From Prochlorococcus sp. AG-402-I20 (GTDB lineage Bacteria; Cyanobacteriota; Cyanobacteriia; PCC-6307; Cyanobiaceae), in assembly GCA_003216975.1 (NCBI GenBank), contig QCHY01000006.1:13972-77971 (forward strand): DNA of 64,000 bases, written 5' to 3'. Shown one piece after another: positions 14,726 through 27,890 of the stretch. The translations under genes were made by a program, and so were the position numbers. Below the pieces are notes generated by a model, which saw nothing but the letters and a program-made list of their open reading frames with translations, ran no database searches and was not told the DNA's origin. Positions within the stretch are counted from its first letter, which is position 1, and each line of letters opens with the position of its first letter.

Positions 14726-14801
14726 GCCGGGATAGCTCAGTTGGTAGAGCAGGCGACTGAAAATCGCCGTGTCCCCAGTTCAAATCTGGGTCCTGGCACC
14801 A
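14726..14801 (+). tRNA. tRNA-Phe(GAA), CCA encoded
   Basis: GCCGGGA acceptor, TAGCTCAGTTGGTAGAGC, anticodon loop CTGAAAA, GTTCAAATC, ends TCCTGGCACCA. Confidence 0.97.
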
Positions 14802-14806
14802 TTATT

Positions 14807-14830
14807 AACCACCTTAACTGGTGGTTTTTT
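14807..14830 (+). terminator. Intrinsic terminator after tRNA-Phe
   Basis: AACCACC-TTAACT-GGTGGTT followed by a T-run. Confidence 0.75.
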
Positions 14831-14942
14831 AATGCCTTGAGTGATACTTAATACCCCCTTCAAGGCAGTAGTACCAATGGTTATAGCAATATAAGTAGAG
14901 GATAACTCCTAAAGAGTACAGGACAATCTGGAAGATCTTTAA

Positions 14943-14967
14943 TGGTATGGAAGTGGTATGGAAGTTT
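14943..14967 (+). repeat. Tandem TGGTATGGAAG x2 (left end of cassette)
   Basis: TGGTATGGAAG TGGTATGGAAG TTT; matches 17536-17560 at 24/25. Confidence 0.85.
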
Positions 14968-15023
14968 CCCTATCAGATTAATGAATTATTACTGCCACGA
15001 TGTTCAATGAATAATCAGAATAT

Positions 15024-17210
15024 TCAGGTATTCATTTTAGAAACCCAGAACTGATACATTCCTCTGAAGGTATGTGGATGTTTCTCTTCAAATTTTTGCC
15101 AATTTTGTAAGTTCGTTTGTTCTTTATCTTCTGGGAAATATTGCTTGTAGAGAGATTTAACTATTTTTGGAAGTAAGAATCCAAGAAACTCTAATTTATT
15201 AGATTTAAGAGTTTCTTGTAGTTGGTTAATTGTGAATCTATGTTCTTGTGGGTGAAAGCATAGATCACGGCAGGAAGAAAGTGTATAGAAATCACCACTG
15301 TTTAATAGAGAGTTTAGCTCTGGTATTTTTCCCGAGAATACAGTCTCTCTGAAATCACGAATGTTATCTTTGCTTGGTTGAAGTTTTTGACTGGCAATAT
15401 AATGCCTTGCTTTAATAATATGTTGTCTTGCTAGTTCGCTATATAAACCTAGATGAAGAAATCCATTAGGTTTTAAAATATTTAATAATGCTTTCAATCC
15501 TTTTAAAGGATTCTCCATATGGTGTAAAACACCACTAGATTCAATAATGTCAAATTGTTCTTCTAGTAATCTAACTTCTAAGATATCCATTTGAATTAGT
15601 TCAACATTATTAATCTCAAATTCATTTATCTTTCTTTGAGCATAAGCAAGACTAGATGAACTTAAGTCTATACCAATAATCTGACTATTCTTATAATTTT
15701 GTGTATATAAAATATGCTGACCTGTTCCACAACCAGCAACAAGAATTTTTAATTGCTTATCACCTAGAGTTTGACTTATATTATTTGGGTAGATTTCATT
15801 ATTAATTCCTTGCACAATAGATATCTTTTCTTTTTCTGAATGATTAGCATATCTCCATCTAGGATATGGATTTTCTTCATATTGAGATTTTACTTTTTTA
15901 GAAATATTGTTATTAATCAACCCTAGTTTTTTAATATTATGGGATAATTCAATTTCTTTTAGAGGTTCCTTTATTTGATAGTTTATTAGTTCTTTAAAAT
16001 TTTCATTAGAAGAATTAAAAGATTTTAAAGATGGTATTAGATCAAGAAGTTTATATAGTGGGAAATAACAAGATAAAATTGCAATATATGATTCATTGCA
16101 TTCCCCATCTGTACATTTCTTTATAATATTATCAATTGAAATATTTTCTTCTTCAGTAAATGAATAAACATATTCATTTAAGAAGCATTGCTCTCCTAAA
16201 GCAATAATAAAGTGTAATTCTGAGCGATTAATAATCTCTATATTGTAAGCGATACGAATGCATATATGCCTCCTTACGTTGGTTAATAGTATCTCTAATT
16301 TATGATCACAAAAGATAATTTTTTTAAGTGCATTAATTATAACTTTATCATTGATAAGCAATTCTATTTGTGAGAAGTTTGAATCAAGTTTCTCTAAATT
16401 ACTGATTATCTTATTTCTATATACAAAGTTAAATGCTCTCCTTAATTCTTTATGAGGGACATCATTTTTCTCTAGCAGAATATTTAATATGTTTTTCAAT
16501 TTTGAGTTGTTTAATTCAGCTAGATCCGAATATCTTAAAAAATAAGTGATTGCTTGGTAAACATTGGAATGTGTTGGATTGATCCGAATCACTTTCAAAT
16601 AAGCATCAAATGCTTCTTGTGATTTTCCAAGATCTATCAATATATTTCCAAGATTGTAATGAGCATCTGCGAAATCAGGTTTCAGTGCAATTGCTTTGCG
16701 AGTAGATACTTCTGCTTTTTTTAAATTCCCAATATCTCTCAATATATTTCCAAGATTGTAATGAGCATCTGCGTAATCAGGTTTCAATTCAATTGCTTTG
16801 CGAGTAGATACTTCTGCTTTTTTTAAATTCCCAATATCTCTCAATATATTTCCCAGGTTGTAATGAGCATTTGCGTAATCAGGTTTCAATTCAATTGCTT
16901 TGCGAGTAGATACTTCTGCTTCTTTTAAGTTGCCAACATCTTTTAATATGACTCCATAATTAGATAAAACTCTGTGATCATTGAAACCTTGCTTTATACA
17001 ATACTGATAATATTTGGTTGCTTCTGGAATATTTCCTTTTAGATGAAACTGAATTGCTTGATTGATTATTTGTTCTTTAGAAGGTTTAGAAGGAGTATTG
17101 GTAGTAATAGTTATGTTTCCTTTGATTTCTCCTAAAGCAAATGGCACTGGGAATGTTTTTAAATCAGTAATTTTCTTCTTTTTTTCTTCTTCTTGACCAT
17201 AACTATCCAT
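15024..17210 (-). CDS. TPR-repeat protein with C-terminal class I SAM-dependent methyltransferase domain
   Basis: 34-aa TPR units (AHYNLGNILRDIGNLKKAEVSTRKAIELKPDY); ILVAGCGTGQH, IDLS, FDIIESSGVLHH methyltransferase motifs. Confidence 0.88.
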   Translation of the reverse strand: MDSYGQEEEKKKKITDLKTFPVPFALGEIKGNITITTNTPSKPSKEQIINQAIQFHLKGNIPEATKYYQYCIKQGFNDHRVLSNYGVILKDVGNLKEAEVSTRKAIELKPDYANAHYNLGNILRDIGNLKKAEVSTRKAIELKPDYADAHYNLGNILRDIGNLKKAEVSTRKAIALKPDFADAHYNLGNILIDLGKSQEAFDAYLKVIRINPTHSNVYQAITYFLRYSDLAELNNSKLKNILNILLEKNDVPHKELRRAFNFVYRNKIISNLEKLDSNFSQIELLINDKVIINALKKIIFCDHKLEILLTNVRRHICIRIAYNIEIINRSELHFIIALGEQCFLNEYVYSFTEEENISIDNIIKKCTDGECNESYIAILSCYFPLYKLLDLIPSLKSFNSSNENFKELINYQIKEPLKEIELSHNIKKLGLINNNISKKVKSQYEENPYPRWRYANHSEKEKISIVQGINNEIYPNNISQTLGDKQLKILVAGCGTGQHILYTQNYKNSQIIGIDLSSSSLAYAQRKINEFEINNVELIQMDILEVRLLEEQFDIIESSGVLHHMENPLKGLKALLNILKPNGFLHLGLYSELARQHIIKARHYIASQKLQPSKDNIRDFRETVFSGKIPELNSLLNSGDFYTLSSCRDLCFHPQEHRFTINQLQETLKSNKLEFLGFLLPKIVKSLYKQYFPEDKEQTNLQNWQKFEEKHPHTFRGMYQFWVSKMNT
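16638..16920. repeat. 102-bp near-identical tandem repeat (about 2.8 units) encoding TPRs
   Basis: CAATATATTTCC recurs at 16638, 16740 and 16842 with almost identical intervening sequence. Confidence 0.92.
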
Positions 17211-17476
17211 CTTCTCTTATCTTTTCTCTCTTTTAGTTCTTCCGATTTTACTACTAAAGCAAAGCGGATACTTGAAATTGGTTGTTTCCCGAAGTTGCTT
17301 AAAGATCTATTGACCTGAACGCTTCTGCATAAATTCCAATGCAATTGATTTGACTGCTTGCTTCTCCTTGAATAATCCTCTTTGGCAAATCTTTTTCTCA
17401 ACATTACTTATGAATGATCAGGAATACGATCCACTTATCAACTCTTCTGGAACTTCTGAAGTGACTAAGTCCCCAG

Positions 17477-17560
17477 AACTTCCATACCAATGACTCATGA
17501 ATAAGAAACAAAAAACAACTCCTACAGAAATGTACTGGTATGGAAATGGTATGGAAGTTT
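17477..17560. repeat. Right-end copies of the TGGTATGGAAG motif (one inverted at 17477-17489, two direct at 17536-17557)
   Basis: AACTTCCATACCA (reverse complement TGGTATGGAAGTT) and TGGTATGGAAA TGGTATGGAAG TTT. Confidence 0.85.
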
Positions 17561-17636
17561 TTTTAAAGGCACCATATTTAGACATTTGCCTTTGGTCACC
17601 AAGCATAAATAGTGTTTTTTCATTATTTTTTTTAGT

Positions 17637-17665
17637 TGTCCCCAGTTCAAATTTGGGTCCTGGCA
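17637..17665 (+). repeat. attR-like duplicate of the tRNA-Phe 3' end
   Basis: TGTCCCCAGTTCAAATTTGGGTCCTGGCA vs TGTCCCCAGTTCAAATCTGGGTCCTGGCA (28/29 identical). Confidence 0.93.
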
Positions 17666-17935
17666 GCATTCAAATAGGAACATTTGAAGCATGAAAAAAG
17701 CACCTTGTTGGAAATACTTTTTTAATACTTATAAAAGTGTTAGTAATTCTTTGAATATTATTAGTTAGCCACTTAGCCACCATTTCTTTGGAACTGCTAT
17801 GCCTTTAAGTCGTGAGTGCCTAAGTAGACCAATCCTAAATTATTACAAAACTGCATAAGAGTTGATACTAGAAGCTCAAAAATCAAAAGATCATTTCAAT
17901 TTTGAGCTACCATAAATGAAATTAGTTGTTAAGAG

Positions 17936-18103
17936 ATGATGAACCTTTTACTAGGAGTTCAAAGTACATTTGATCTATCTAAAGTAGATTTCTCCTCAGG
18001 CCTAGGTATAAATTCACCGGATCTTGCTGGCATAAATTTTTTAATGGTTATTTTTGCAGGGGTTTTAGCTTTGAGACTTGGAACAACTCTTAGAGACTCT
18101 TAG
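17936..18103 (+). CDS. PsaM-like small membrane protein, 55 aa (not in ORF track)
   Basis: Manual translation MMNLLLGVQSTFDLSKVDFSSGLGINSPDLAGINFLMVIFAGVLALRLGTTLRDS; C-terminal AGVLALRLG resembles photosystem I subunit XII. Confidence 0.65.
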   Translation: MMNLLLGVQSTFDLSKVDFSSGLGINSPDLAGINFLMVIFAGVLALRLGTTLRDS

Positions 18104-18501
18104 TTTCCAAAAGAATAAAAGTTAAATTTTTAAAGTTGATATTCTTAAAGAATAAATAATGATTTTCTTAAACCATTAATAAGATTAGATAATCTAATTT
18201 CGATTTCTTCGAAAGAAGTTCACAATAAAAATGAAGACAATTATAAGTAAGACTAAAAGATCGTTAATATCTGGCAAAATCAATAGCTGATAATCAAATA
18301 TATTTTAAACAATAATCTTAAGTTTTGTTGGTTTTCATATCATTTATCTCCAAATGCATTAGTTAGCTTATAAAGCAGAAACCATACTGCGATAGGCTTG
18401 ATCGACTAAAATAAATAATGATTAACTAAATTACAAAGACTGGGTGATTTTTAATATGCCATTAAGCAAGTAAAATACCTTAAAAGTTTGATTCTTTTCT
18501 A

Positions 18502-18732
18502 ATGAATTTAGAGGCATCTAGTGAAAATTTATATAATAATGCTGATAGTTTTGCAATGGCATTTGATGCAGCCTGGAAGGATTGTGATATAGGAAAAAAT
18601 AAAAATATAAAAATAGATGAAAAGATTGAAATAGCCTTTGAAAAGATCAAAAATCACCCTTTTCTAATTTCAAATCCAATCCAATCAAAAAATGTTGCTC
18701 TCTTCAGAATAAAATTATTAGGACTATCCTAA
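18502..18732 (+). CDS. Small hypothetical protein
   Basis: 76-aa ATG-initiated ORF filling the gap; protein-like composition (LYNNADSFAMAFDAAW, KIKNHPFL). Confidence 0.6.
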   Translation: MNLEASSENLYNNADSFAMAFDAAWKDCDIGKNKNIKIDEKIEIAFEKIKNHPFLISNPIQSKNVALFRIKLLGLS

Positions 18733-18765
18733 GTTTTAATAATCAGAAGGAATCAAAACCTTTCT

Positions 18766-19812
18766 TCAAAAAGTATTTTTAAAATAATCCAAGTACCATT
18801 CAGAAAACAATTTAATACCATTCTCTATAGATGTTGTAGGTTTATATTCTACCCATGAATTAAGCAAGTCCATCCTTGCAGCAGTTGAAACTACATCTCC
18901 TGGCTGCATAGGTTGAAAATTCTTTATAGCTTTCCTTCCTAAATTCTTCTCTAATAACTCTATAAAATATATGAGTTGAGTGGGATGTGAATTACCTATA
19001 TTAAAAATCCGATAAGGTGCGGATGAAGTTGAAGGGTTAGGAAGAAGAGGATTAAATTTTTCATCAATACTTGCTTTCTTGAAGCAACAACGAATTATAC
19101 CCTCTACCACATCATCGATGTAAGTAAAATCCCTCTGCATTTTACCGTGATTAAATACTTGGATTGGCTCATTATTTAATATTGATCTCGCAAAAATCAT
19201 TGGAGCCATATCTGGTCTTCCCCATGGTCCATAAACGGTAAAGAATCGAAGCCCAGTTGTTGGCAAGTCATATAAATGGCTATAAGTATGGGCCATTAAT
19301 TCATTAGATTTCTTAGTTGCCGCATACAAGCTAACTGGATGATTTACTGCTTGTTCTTCATAGAAAGGAAGATTTTGATTACCACCATAAACAGAACTGC
19401 TTGATGCATAAATCAAATGAGGAATCTTATTCTGCCTACACCCTTCAAGTACATTTGCAAAACCTACCAAATTACTTTGTATGTATGTAGCAGGATTAGT
19501 TATTGAATAACGAACACCAGCTTGCGCAGCAAGATGAACAAAAACTTGTGGATTATATCTATTAATAATGTCTTGCAATACTTTATTATCTTCTATAGGA
19601 ATCTCATAAAAAAACCATTCTCCATTTTTCTCGGCAACTTTCCCAATTTCAGTTAATCTAGATCTCTTTAAGGCAGTAGAATAATAATCATTTAAGTTAT
19701 CAATACCTATAACTTTGAAATCTAAATTAAGAAGAGCTTTTACTAAAGCAGCACCAATAAAACCTGCGGCACCTGTTACAAGAATTGCCTCCTTACTTAC
19801 CTTTTTATTCAT
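18766..19812 (-). CDS. NAD-dependent epimerase, UDP-glucuronate 4-epimerase-like
   Basis: VTGAAGFIG, HLAAQAGVRYS, YAATKKSNE, GRPDMA, MQPGDV motifs. Confidence 0.9.
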   Translation of the reverse strand: MNKKVSKEAILVTGAAGFIGAALVKALLNLDFKVIGIDNLNDYYSTALKRSRLTEIGKVAEKNGEWFFYEIPIEDNKVLQDIINRYNPQVFVHLAAQAGVRYSITNPATYIQSNLVGFANVLEGCRQNKIPHLIYASSSSVYGGNQNLPFYEEQAVNHPVSLYAATKKSNELMAHTYSHLYDLPTTGLRFFTVYGPWGRPDMAPMIFARSILNNEPIQVFNHGKMQRDFTYIDDVVEGIIRCCFKKASIDEKFNPLLPNPSTSSAPYRIFNIGNSHPTQLIYFIELLEKNLGRKAIKNFQPMQPGDVVSTAARMDLLNSWVEYKPTTSIENGIKLFSEWYLDYFKNTF

Positions 19813-19897
19813 GAGTTATTACAATTTCCAAAAAATAAATAATTTCAATATAATAATAGCATCATATTGATTAACTTTATAAATTAAAAATAGTTAA

Positions 19898-20857
19898 TTA
19901 CTTATTTAGTTTTACAAAGGTTAATTTCTTTTCAAAATACTTTCTTGTAATTGCCAATCCTTCTTTGAACATTATTTTAGGTTCCCAATTCAATTCTTTT
20001 CGTGCGAGTCGAATTGAAGGTTTTCTTCTTAAAGGATCATCCTCAAGTTCTTTTAAAAATTGCAGATTTACTTTTTCAATTGATGTATTTCTAATTAAGT
20101 TAGTTATTTCAAGGATAGATAATTCTTCAGGATTACCTAAATTCATAGGTCCTATACTTGAAGAATTCATAAATAGAATTAAACCATCTATCAAATCATC
20201 AACATAACAAAAGCTTCTGGTTTGATTACCATTGCCATAAATAGTTAAGTCCTTTCCATATATTGATTGAACTAATAAGTTGCTAATAAGTCTTCCATCA
20301 TTTAATAACATTCTAGGCCCATAGGTATTAAATATTCTGGCAATTCTGATCTCTATATCGTGCATTCTCATATAGTCATAACACAATGATTCGGCAACAC
20401 GTTTACCCTCATCGTAGCAACTACGAATTCCTATAGGATTTACATTGCCGTTATATTTTTCAGTTTGAGGATGTATTTCGGGATTCCCATAAACTTCACT
20501 AGTACTTGCGAATAATATTCGAGCTCCAACTCTCCTCGCCAACCCAAGCATATTGTAAGTCCCAAGAAAACTCGTTTTAGCTGTTTTAATAGGGTTAAAT
20601 TGATAATGAATTGGAGAAGCTGGACAAGCTAAATGCCAAATCCTATCAACATCAAGCTTGATTGGCTCGGTAACGTCATGATGTATAAGCTCAAAAGATG
20701 GATTTCCAATCCAATGTTCAATATTTTCTTTACTCCCAGTAAAAAAATTATCCAGACATACAACTTTTTCTCCAGATTTCATTAAGCGATCAACCAAATG
20801 AGAACCCACAAAGCCAGCTCCTCCAGTAACCAAGTTTTTTCCAGGAGATGTGGGCAT
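19898..20857 (-). CDS. UDP-glucuronate decarboxylase (UDP-xylose synthase)
   Basis: VTGGAGFVGSHL, HLACPASP, ASTSEVYG, RSCYDEGKR, DDPLRRKP motifs. Confidence 0.92.
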   Translation of the reverse strand: MPTSPGKNLVTGGAGFVGSHLVDRLMKSGEKVVCLDNFFTGSKENIEHWIGNPSFELIHHDVTEPIKLDVDRIWHLACPASPIHYQFNPIKTAKTSFLGTYNMLGLARRVGARILFASTSEVYGNPEIHPQTEKYNGNVNPIGIRSCYDEGKRVAESLCYDYMRMHDIEIRIARIFNTYGPRMLLNDGRLISNLLVQSIYGKDLTIYGNGNQTRSFCYVDDLIDGLILFMNSSSIGPMNLGNPEELSILEITNLIRNTSIEKVNLQFLKELEDDPLRRKPSIRLARKELNWEPKIMFKEGLAITRKYFEKKLTFVKLNK

Positions 20858-26807: not shown

Positions 26808-27275
26808 TCATGCAAGTGCGTTTATTAAATAATCCAATAATCCTTTAAATTCTGTTTCTGCCTGCTGACTCATAACATCATTTATTTTAATTTCATCTCT
26901 AATAAAAATAAATGCTTCTATATATGCAGCTGTTGGTAGTAACTGGATACGAATAATTTCTCTCATACCTGATATTCCCCATTCATCTAAAGGACCAGTG
27001 CCTCCAGTTACTAAGCAATAATTAATAAGACGCAAGTAATGATGAATATCTCTCACACACTTATCTTTATTAGCCTGCTCATATGAGCCATTTTGATATA
27101 CAGCATCAACGGCAAGATTGGTAAATTTATCAATACAAGAAGCAAGTTTTTCTGCAGCCTCCAGACGAGCTTTAGCCCTATCAAAAGAACCTTTCACAGA
27201 CTCAAAATCGCTCATGCTAGGAAATCTTCCTGCTGCATCAGCTGCGCTAACAACGGTTGTAACTGCTGATTTCAT
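26808..27275 (-). CDS. cpeA: Phycoerythrin alpha subunit (PE-III type)
   Basis: MKSAVTTVVSAADAAGRFPS, KDKCVRDIHHYLRLINYCLVTGGTGPLDEWG. Confidence 0.96.
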   Translation of the reverse strand: MKSAVTTVVSAADAAGRFPSMSDFESVKGSFDRAKARLEAAEKLASCIDKFTNLAVDAVYQNGSYEQANKDKCVRDIHHYLRLINYCLVTGGTGPLDEWGISGMREIIRIQLLPTAAYIEAFIFIRDEIKINDVMSQQAETEFKGLLDYLINALA

Positions 27276-27338
27276 AGTGACTTAATAAGAATTGGTTGGA
27301 AGTGCTTTAGATGAGGAAAAAAGATTAAAGTTGAATAT

Positions 27339-27890
<552 letters not shown>

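Follow-up and report, generated by a model that had tools for sequence, protein, structure and literature searches.

An integrase-less cassette with attachment cores and arm-type sites at the tRNA-Phe gene of a Prochlorococcus genome

The stretch of DNA analysed here (hereafter, the window) comprises 64,000 nucleotides of Prochlorococcus sp. AG-402-I20, whose genome assembly, G000, amounts to 1.70 Mb in 43 contigs and is 92% complete; the genomes of this genus span 1.8-2.0 Mb and have a G+C content of ~35%. The tRNA-Phe(GAA) gene of the window is followed by a cassette that ends in a second copy of the tRNA 3' end and contains a single long gene, encoding a methyltransferase with tetratricopeptide repeats (TPR). 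With a probability of roughly 75%, this interval is an integrase-less derivative of a tycheposon-like element of picocyanobacteria that targets tRNA-Phe (Phe-type), movable only with an incoming cognate element. Five lines of evidence are observed directly: the duplication of the attachment (att) site, the empty sites in related genomes, the full elements at the same site, the fold of the recombinase that those elements encode, as modelled, and the spacing and conservation of the arm-type sites. The features of the cassette and its target, in window coordinates, are the following.

14726..14801, forward strand: tRNA-Phe(GAA), the integration target (ARAGORN)
14770..14803, forward strand: attL core, 34 nt, T-arm through encoded CCA plus TT (direct repeat, pattern search)
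14807..14832, forward strand: hairpin plus T-run, element-borne (terminator-like site at 14807-14826)
14944..14963, forward strand: P' (left) arm, tandem pair of GGTATGGAA sites, +170 and +181 relative to the core (motif count, spacing in the metagenomic contig L113)
15024..17210, reverse strand: cargo gene, 728 aa, TPR plus class I S-adenosylmethionine-dependent methyltransferase (open reading frame (ORF), Pfam)
17211..17415, no strand: region upstream of the TPR gene (blastn against the tRNA-Phe loci of relatives)
17480..17488, reverse strand: P (right) arm, single GGTATGGAA site in inverted orientation, -161 relative to the core (motif count, spacing in L113)
17537..17556, forward strand: P (right) arm, tandem pair of GGTATGGAA sites, -104 and -93 relative to the core (motif count, metagenomic spacing)
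17637..17670, forward strand: attR core, the displaced original 3' end of tRNA-Phe, 2/34 mismatches (direct repeat, pattern search)

The 29-mer TGTCCCCAGTTCAAATCTGGGTCCTGGCA, i.e. the end of tRNA-Phe before the encoded CCA, lies at positions 14770-14798 and is found again at 17637-17665, where a single position differs (C to T at 17653); from start to start, the two copies are 2,867 bp apart. In full, the repeat measures 34 nt (14770-14803 and 17637-17670) and has two mismatches, the second of which, at 17666, turns the encoded CCA into GCA in the distal copy. The window contains exactly two copies of the 29-mer, whereas none of 100 shuffles gave two matches, and a third copy is absent from the 1.70-Mb genome. 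From position 17666 onward, the window is homologous to the DNA directly 3' of the tRNA in genomes with an empty site. The tRNA-Phe sequence is 100% identical across all genomes of the genus examined, and the present 3' end of the gene is supplied by the attL copy. As in tycheposons, the insert is bounded on one side by the complete tRNA 3' end and on the other by a partial copy. An exact scan of the IMG/VR viral contigs with 26 nt of the att core found nothing.

The initial annotation, made from the letters of the window alone, had noticed the 29-nt repeat, taken it for an attL/attR pair produced by tycheposon-like integration into a tRNA 3' end, and described an interval with one long gene and without an integrase, excisionase or replication ORF, which it took for a stripped-down remnant or else for a cassette that is not autonomous but has its cis sites preserved; the five GGTATGGAA sites were not listed there. 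The repeat is borne out by ARAGORN, the pattern search and the shuffles, and the gene content by the ORF list and Pfam; the att pair is supported by the empty sites and by the full elements at the same att site, and the cis sites, both core and arm, are indeed retained.

The tRNA-Phe locus was compared between the window and 31 other species-level Prochlorococcus genomes (32 in total), with the att-like copies and the start of the right flank of the window located in each. The occupancy of the site is hypervariable. Three genomes (G027, G029 and G007) have an exact empty site, where the right flank resumes precisely at the tRNA end; in G027, the CCATTCAAATAGG... that follows the tRNA matches the GCATTCAAATAGG... 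that follows the distal att copy of the window. In G022, G025, G003 and G032, the site is empty or nearly so. Among the occupied loci, G036 carries a cassette with a 728-aa TPR-methyltransferase and a distal att copy with 3 mismatches, G033 a 2,836-bp cassette of other content followed by a 108-bp mini-cassette, G001 a 109-bp mini-cassette, G026 three unrelated genes between att copies that match over the 26-nt core, and G012 and G009 7-9 kb with several TPR genes. Tandem states are found in G033 and G009, where cassettes follow one another, and in G035, where a cassette follows a full element. The att copies of the relatives have 0-5 mismatches. In a tree of the 4.7-kb left flank, the state of the site differs on nearly every terminal branch, and G035 is the sister of G000, yet has a different occupant. 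The comparison of these loci, proposed on the basis of the window alone, is in favour of the initial annotation: the content differs between related species and exact empty sites exist.

The mini-cassettes of about 109 bp (locus L032 in G033 and L033 in G001; 108-109 bp after the first or second att copy) contain only the terminator of the element, a further 45 nt or so and one more att copy. Such a structure is either a unit of minimal size or what deletions between the arms have left behind.

Full elements occupy the same site in G035 (Prochlorococcus sp. AG-402-I21), with 6,777 bp between two att copies identical over the 26-nt core, and in G021 (P. marinus MIT 1012), with 5,544 bp between the tRNA copy and a distal copy that has two core mismatches. 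In both, a 207-aa serine recombinase of the Resolvase family adjoins the tRNA (Pfam E-values of 2e-36 in G035 and 4e-25 in G021), and a protein of 469-493 aa is encoded 170-260 nt from the distal att copy, reading inward. No replication-type Pfam domain (primase, helicase or polymerase) is found among the proteins of these two elements. In G020, a serine recombinase is followed by a TPR gene, and G010 retains a 126-aa stump of the large protein.

The large (~470-aa) protein has no sequence match in Pfam, NCBIfam or the PDB. Nevertheless, it can be identified as a very divergent tyrosine recombinase, because the R, K, R-H-T and Y columns of the family alignment are invariant and follow the order characteristic of tyrosine recombinases, one member matches PHROG 1 ‘integrase' (phrog_1, E-value 8.7e-10), and the fold matches point the same way. 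The AlphaFold model (predicted local distance difference test score, pLDDT, of 87.3, built on 34 sequences) has top matches in the PDB that are all tyrosine recombinases (XerH, XerA, lambda Int, Tn1549 Int and Cre). It includes an N-terminal beta-strand domain, and 415 columns can be aligned between it and full-length lambda Int (1z1b). The family is present in 6 of the 42 genomes of the genus, as well as in Synechococcus and Vulcanococcus genomes.

A metagenome scan with a profile of this recombinase family yielded 80 loci, in at least 16 of which the tRNA-Phe core lies 170-200 nt upstream of the recombinase start. At 170-260 nt from the distal att copy, this tyrosine recombinase is found in G035, G021 and at least 16 metagenomic loci; the window lacks it. 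Three independent marine contigs, L075 (Ga0163180_10064803), L076 (MDSV01127613.1) and L113 (Ga0163179_10027273), share the order recombinase, right arm, core, terminator, left arm, serine recombinase. In these contigs, both element ends are joined through one att core, without the 5' half of the tRNA, as would be expected of an excised circle or a tandem pair. The cognate recombinase that mobilization in trans had been supposed to involve accordingly has a counterpart in the population: full elements exist at the same att site, and metagenomic elements share the arm motif. A separate set of loci, mostly from freshwater metagenomes (L074, L078, L080, L084, L094, L121, L123, L125, L132, L133 and L149), represents another branch of the recombinase family that is located at the same distance from a different tRNA-like end, CCCCAGTTCGAATCTGGGTGCCGCCT, which suggests that target switching between tRNAs may have occurred within the family.

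Alignment of all occupants reveals a common architecture of the ends: the core, a hairpin terminator, a tandem pair of 9-mers on the left and, on the right, one inverted 9-mer together with a second tandem pair. Nearly every occupied locus has a homologous hairpin after the att core, and the empty sites have none; in the window, this element-borne hairpin probably now terminates the tRNA-Phe transcript. The arm 9-mer of the window, GGTATGGAA, starts at 14944 and 14955 on the forward strand, at 17480 on the reverse strand, and at 17537 and 17548 on the forward strand. All five copies in the 64-kb window are in the cassette ends, compared with 0.42 copies expected, and the two tandem pairs of the cassette are the only ones in the whole G000 genome. 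The offsets of the sites from the core compare as follows.

L113: right inverted -162; right tandem -104, -93; left tandem +173, +184; left inverted +232
Window: right inverted -161; right tandem -104, -93; left tandem +170, +181; left inverted absent

The right tandem offsets are identical in the window and in L075, L076 and L113, all three of which carry the recombinase beside the same core, with GGTATGGAA arms; in L113, the inverted site at -162 abuts the recombinase start codon. Up to the inverted site, the arms of the window share homology with those of elements that bear the recombinase. The window thus displays the layout of a lambda-type attachment site, with repeats on both arms at conserved distances around a core shared with attB. 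The 9-mer is element-specific, with the direct and inverted copies changing together.

Window and seven other integrase-less cassettes: GGTATGGAA
G035: GGTATGTAA
G021: GGTATGGCA
G020: GGTATAGCA

It is presumably the N-terminal domain of the recombinase that binds GGTATGGAA. In the right arm (5 sequences), 5.0% of the positions in motif columns are off consensus compared with 19.9% in the other arm columns (p = 1.4e-5), and in the left arm (8 sequences), the respective values are 7.8% and 20.5% (p = 2.6e-4); these differences are suggestive of motif conservation in integrase-less cassettes, given that the sequences are few and related. A strict pattern of the right arm, run over 401 genomes of the family, matches in G000 and G033 only, and therefore, the exact arm type is confined to this genus.

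Within G000, PF00589 has one match only, a 390-aa gene, which is the core Xer-like enzyme because nearly every genome of the genus has one. The divergent recombinase family has one member (465 aa) in G000, on contig C12, within an element at tRNA-Cys, and a tblastn search of the genome with three Phe-type recombinases finds only this copy, at 34% identity. The arms of the tRNA-Cys element contain GGAAGGGGA-type repeats, without GGTATGGAA. The search for an integrase elsewhere in the genome with matching arm motifs, suggested in the initial annotation, came out with no cognate enzyme visible in the 92% complete assembly and with one relative that is associated with a different motif. The resident tRNA-Cys element was considered as a helper and rejected, in view of the other arm motif and of a recombinase that is 34-38% identical to the Phe-type enzymes. 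The tRNA-Cys(GCA) element itself spans 10.2 kb outside the window (L063:4952-15224, equivalent to G000 contig C12:21951-32223), between att repeats of 101 nt that are 83% identical (L063:4952-5052 and 15124-15224). It encodes the 465-aa recombinase, which adjoins the distal repeat, a 193-aa serine recombinase and a 523-aa protein with TPR-like repeats; tRNA-Cys is absent from the published list of tycheposon targets.

The cargo gene is the sole long ORF of the interval. Its product matches TPR_1 (E-value 7e-35) and Methyltransf_11 (E-value 9e-18) in Pfam and contains three to five TPR units; no NCBIfam model reaches the cut-off, and no other recorded gene encodes an identical protein. No integrase, excisionase or replication gene is present in the interval, with no recombinase ORF within 14802-17636, and the three or four small ORFs in the non-coding cassette ends are without a Pfam match. 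The region upstream of the gene (17211-17415) is common to the cassettes and to the TPR genes that relatives have at tRNA-Phe, is not specific to the att ends and has no second copy in G000.

Between G000 and G036, which is placed in the other main clade by flank identity, the TPR-methyltransferases have 68% protein identity, with a synonymous divergence (dS) of 0.60 and a ratio of nonsynonymous to synonymous divergence (dN/dS) of 0.32, compared with a dS of 0.28-0.39 for the core genes that flank the site. As judged from the dN/dS, the cargo is under purifying selection and functional in both lineages. As dated by these divergences, the two cargo alleles would predate the split of their flanks, which fits either independent acquisition or an old polymorphism moved by recombination. 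The cassettes of G033, G017 and G014 keep a 3' fragment of the TPR-methyltransferase gene beside the left arm, and therefore, the integrase-less cassettes share ancestry, their content having changed internally.

About 15 paralogues in G000 share the N-terminal leader and the TPR part of the cargo protein (at C2:134400-139300, C13:39900-45600 and C24:9900-14850, and on contigs C26, C10, C33 and C3), with up to about 100 DNA matches in related genomes; several paralogue clusters adjoin tRNA-Ala(GGC), tRNA-Arg(TCT) or tRNA-Ser(GCT). None of the ~15 paralogues elsewhere in G000 has GGTATGGAA arms. The initial annotation had also suggested that such cassettes could help explain the spread of TPR-methyltransferase genes in this lineage; a gene of this kind does lie between att sites here, and the idea as a general route gains little from a genome in which the paralogues sit without such arms. 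A TPR-methyltransferase cassette following the full element of G035 was considered as well and dropped: the homologues on other G035 contigs carry no arms or att copy, and the link was not made.

The history of the locus that we favour starts with a circular element whose attP would have had a 34-bp core equal to the 3' end of tRNA-Phe. A tyrosine recombinase of the heterobivalent, lambda type, whose gene lay at the element's distal end, would have recombined attP with the tRNA, so that the tRNA was rebuilt from element DNA and its original 3' end was pushed to attR. Later, the tyrosine recombinase, the small serine recombinase and all other genes of the element would have been lost. What the window keeps is both cores, the terminator that the element brought in, five of its six GGTATGGAA arm sites, spaced as originally, and a single cargo gene. 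An incoming cognate Phe-type element could then excise the cassette as a 2,867-bp circle, or integrate alongside it and exit with it as a tandem composite; the tandem states in G033, G009 and G035 indicate that such accretion happens. The direction of this derivation, by recombinase loss, and any present-day mobilization are what we infer from these observations.

Several points weigh against this history. The sixth arm site, inverted at +232 in L113, is absent from the window. Homologous replacement through conserved flanks can also give precise empty sites, which on their own do not prove excision. A cognate integrase could also be encoded in what the assembly, at 92% completeness, does not cover. 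Finally, a decayed 5' stump of the recombinase at about 17420-17480, hinted at by the multiple alignment, was rejected given that its local alignment with six recombinase genes is no better than with shuffles (z of 0.2-2.0); there being no significant recombinase remnant in the right arm, it is the arm homology alone that argues for derivation by deletion.

A different and more tentative explanation is that the cassette belongs to an actively maintained family of non-autonomous cassettes, whose sites are kept by selection and which rare recombinase-bearing Phe-type elements service in trans; the tRNA-Phe locus would then work like a tRNA-anchored, integron-like array that swaps single genes. 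At least eight species genomes (G000, G036, G033, G026, G009, G017, G031 and G014) have GGTATGGAA-type arms around differing cargo, namely, the TPR-methyltransferase in G000 and G036, a 331-aa gene plus a TPR gene in G033 and three unrelated genes in G026, and the lower variability of the arm-site columns compared with the neighbouring arm sequence is as expected of maintained sites, with the caveat that this conservation test involves 5 and 8 related sequences. The tandem cassettes in G033 and G009 and the cassette after the full element of G035 are also in line with maintenance, and so is the change of content on almost every terminal branch, with a full element in the sister G035, except that homologous recombination via the flanks could yield the same patchy distribution. 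The cargo divergence between G000 and G036 (dS of 0.60 against 0.28-0.39 in the flanks) fits draws from a cassette pool, whereas the TPR-methyltransferase 3' fragment shared by G033, G017 and G014 points to common descent with internal replacement rather than to independent capture. The last 60 nt of the G026 right arm match the recombinase-bearing L075 type; conversely, the 0-5 mismatches in the att copies of relatives and the loss of one arm site in G036 are what neutral decay would produce. It is conceivable, at a similarly tentative level, that low-light Prochlorococcus runs a tRNA-anchored counterpart of the integron, in which recombinase-less cassettes with the 34-bp tRNA-Phe core and GGTATGGAA arms persist under selection and the divergent tyrosine recombinase, encoded in a minority of cells by full Phe-type elements, excises, stacks and exchanges them in trans. 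If so, the lineage would swap single genes, here of the TPR type, beside its pigment region with no integrase cost per cassette.

It is improbable that the cassette is mobilized within this very cell by a cognate integrase encoded in the ~8% of the genome absent from the assembly. Points in favour of this are the state of the assembly (43 contigs, 92% completeness), the frequent location of mobile elements in assembly gaps, the perfect sequence of all five arm sites and an attR that differs at just 2 of 34 nt. Against it, the tRNA-Cys copy (34% identity) is the sole tblastn match, no more than 6 of the 42 genomes of the genus have a member of the family, and the single attB, tRNA-Phe, lies on a 98-kb contig with this cassette as its one occupant. 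The reading of the repeat as a chance or duplication copy of the tRNA end, with the insert brought in by illegitimate or homologous recombination, is untenable and was rejected, for nothing specific speaks for it beyond the partly palindromic, conserved T-arms of tRNAs, 0 of 100 shuffles reached two matches, the same boundaries delimit the empty sites and full elements bear the same core beside a tyrosine recombinase. An integron-type reading was rejected too, there being no attC fold, no IntI/attI platform and, with the Xer-like enzyme, a single PF00589 match.

The cassette lies between tRNA-Phe(GAA) and phycobiliprotein genes, the cpeB-/cpeA-like genes being located at ~27126-27887 on the reverse strand, about 10 kb downstream. 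To the right of the cassette, a 55-aa ORF (17936-18103, forward strand) has a weak match to PsaM (Pfam E-value of 0.0012, below the cut-off). In the first 14 kb after tRNA-Phe of G008 (locus L045), cpeB-/cpeA-like genes are about 9.6-10.7 kb from the tRNA, and a 76-aa homologue of the window ORF at 18502-18732 and a UXS-like gene are present; blastn with the right flank of the window (17666-20000) gave no match in this locus. G008 is on a very long branch of the flank tree, and its locus is far diverged and may be partly rearranged or misassigned.

To our knowledge, Prochlorococcus has no plasmids, conjugation or competence genes, and therefore, the gain and loss of genes in its islands is an open question, to which tycheposons are the main proposed answer. 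The tRNA-Phe gene, a tycheposon-like site of Synechococcus, is also busy in low-light Prochlorococcus, with a recombinase so divergent that Pfam and NCBIfam miss it, and with a full set of cis sites, i.e. the core and the element-specific arm-type sites, that is readable straight from the DNA. The locus offers a concrete pair of substrate and enzyme for the question of whether integrase-less island pieces are dead debris or still movable, and in its cargo, a TPR protein from a very large family is fused to a methyltransferase. The mechanism and the target are already known; what is new is the host lineage, the readable arm sites and the recombinase family missed by standard profiles.

In Synechococcus, tycheposon-like insertions between tRNA-Phe(GAA) and the phycobilisome rod region include resolvases and TPR genes and have, distally, a tyrosine recombinase along with what is left of a tRNA-Phe (Grebert et al. 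2022, PMC8995045). The window locus is the Prochlorococcus counterpart of this insertion site, because cpeB and cpeA are about 10 kb downstream. The same tRNA is involved, phycoerythrin genes lie downstream, a tRNA-Phe remnant is in distal position (17637-17670), and in the full relatives in G035 and G021, the tyrosine recombinase is distal, adjoining the remnant, while their interior contains TPR genes and tnpR-like resolvases. Unlike the Synechococcus insertions, the host is Prochlorococcus (genomes of the low-light clade I type) and the window copy is without the recombinase; the arm-type sites, their spacing and their co-variation are undescribed in that work. According to its authors, tRNA-Phe was never seen as a tycheposon site in Prochlorococcus, where the integrases of tycheposons usually adjoin the tRNA (PMC8995045); in the Phe-type relatives described here, the integrase is distal, not beside the tRNA. 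We found no later paper reporting tRNA-Phe insertions of this sort in Prochlorococcus.

Tycheposons integrate at seven tRNAs, where integrations in tandem and degenerate remnants that include partial tRNAs also occur (Hackl et al., bioRxiv 10.1101/2020.12.28.424599), and tRNA-Phe and arm sites are unmentioned in that work. The resemblance lies in integration at a tRNA 3' end that seeds an island, in the partial tRNA copies, tandems and cargo, and in remnants without clear integrases. In contrast, tRNA-Phe is off the list of seven tRNAs, and the cassette has neither its own site-specific integrase, which is present in the full relatives in G035 and G021, nor a replication module, the TPR-methyltransferase being its only gene.

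Among elements of other bacteria, the closest concept is that of cis-mobilizable elements (CIMEs), derived in Streptococcus from integrative and conjugative elements (ICEs) as well as from integrative and mobilizable ones (IMEs) (PMC5704250). A cassette with complete cis sites fits this definition: attL and attR are retained, with both 34-nt cores plus five arm sites, and, like CIMEs, such cassettes occur in tandem with related elements at a tRNA 3' end. The parent would differ, being a small, non-conjugative cyanobacterial element and not an ICE, and mobilization by accretion would be the corresponding process here. The organization of the ends resembles the lambda-type attP, with a short core identical to attB and direct and inverted arm-type repeats on both arms at fixed distances; compared with that system, no excisionase was identified, and arm binding would be the role of the N-terminal domain. 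The units at tRNA-Phe have in common with integron cassettes that each is a single, promoter-proximal gene lacking a recombinase, that they pile up at one site and that an enzyme encoded elsewhere would act on them; unlike integron cassettes, they have a duplex core derived from a tRNA, with linear arms, as their site, and their recombinase is of another, lambda-like family.

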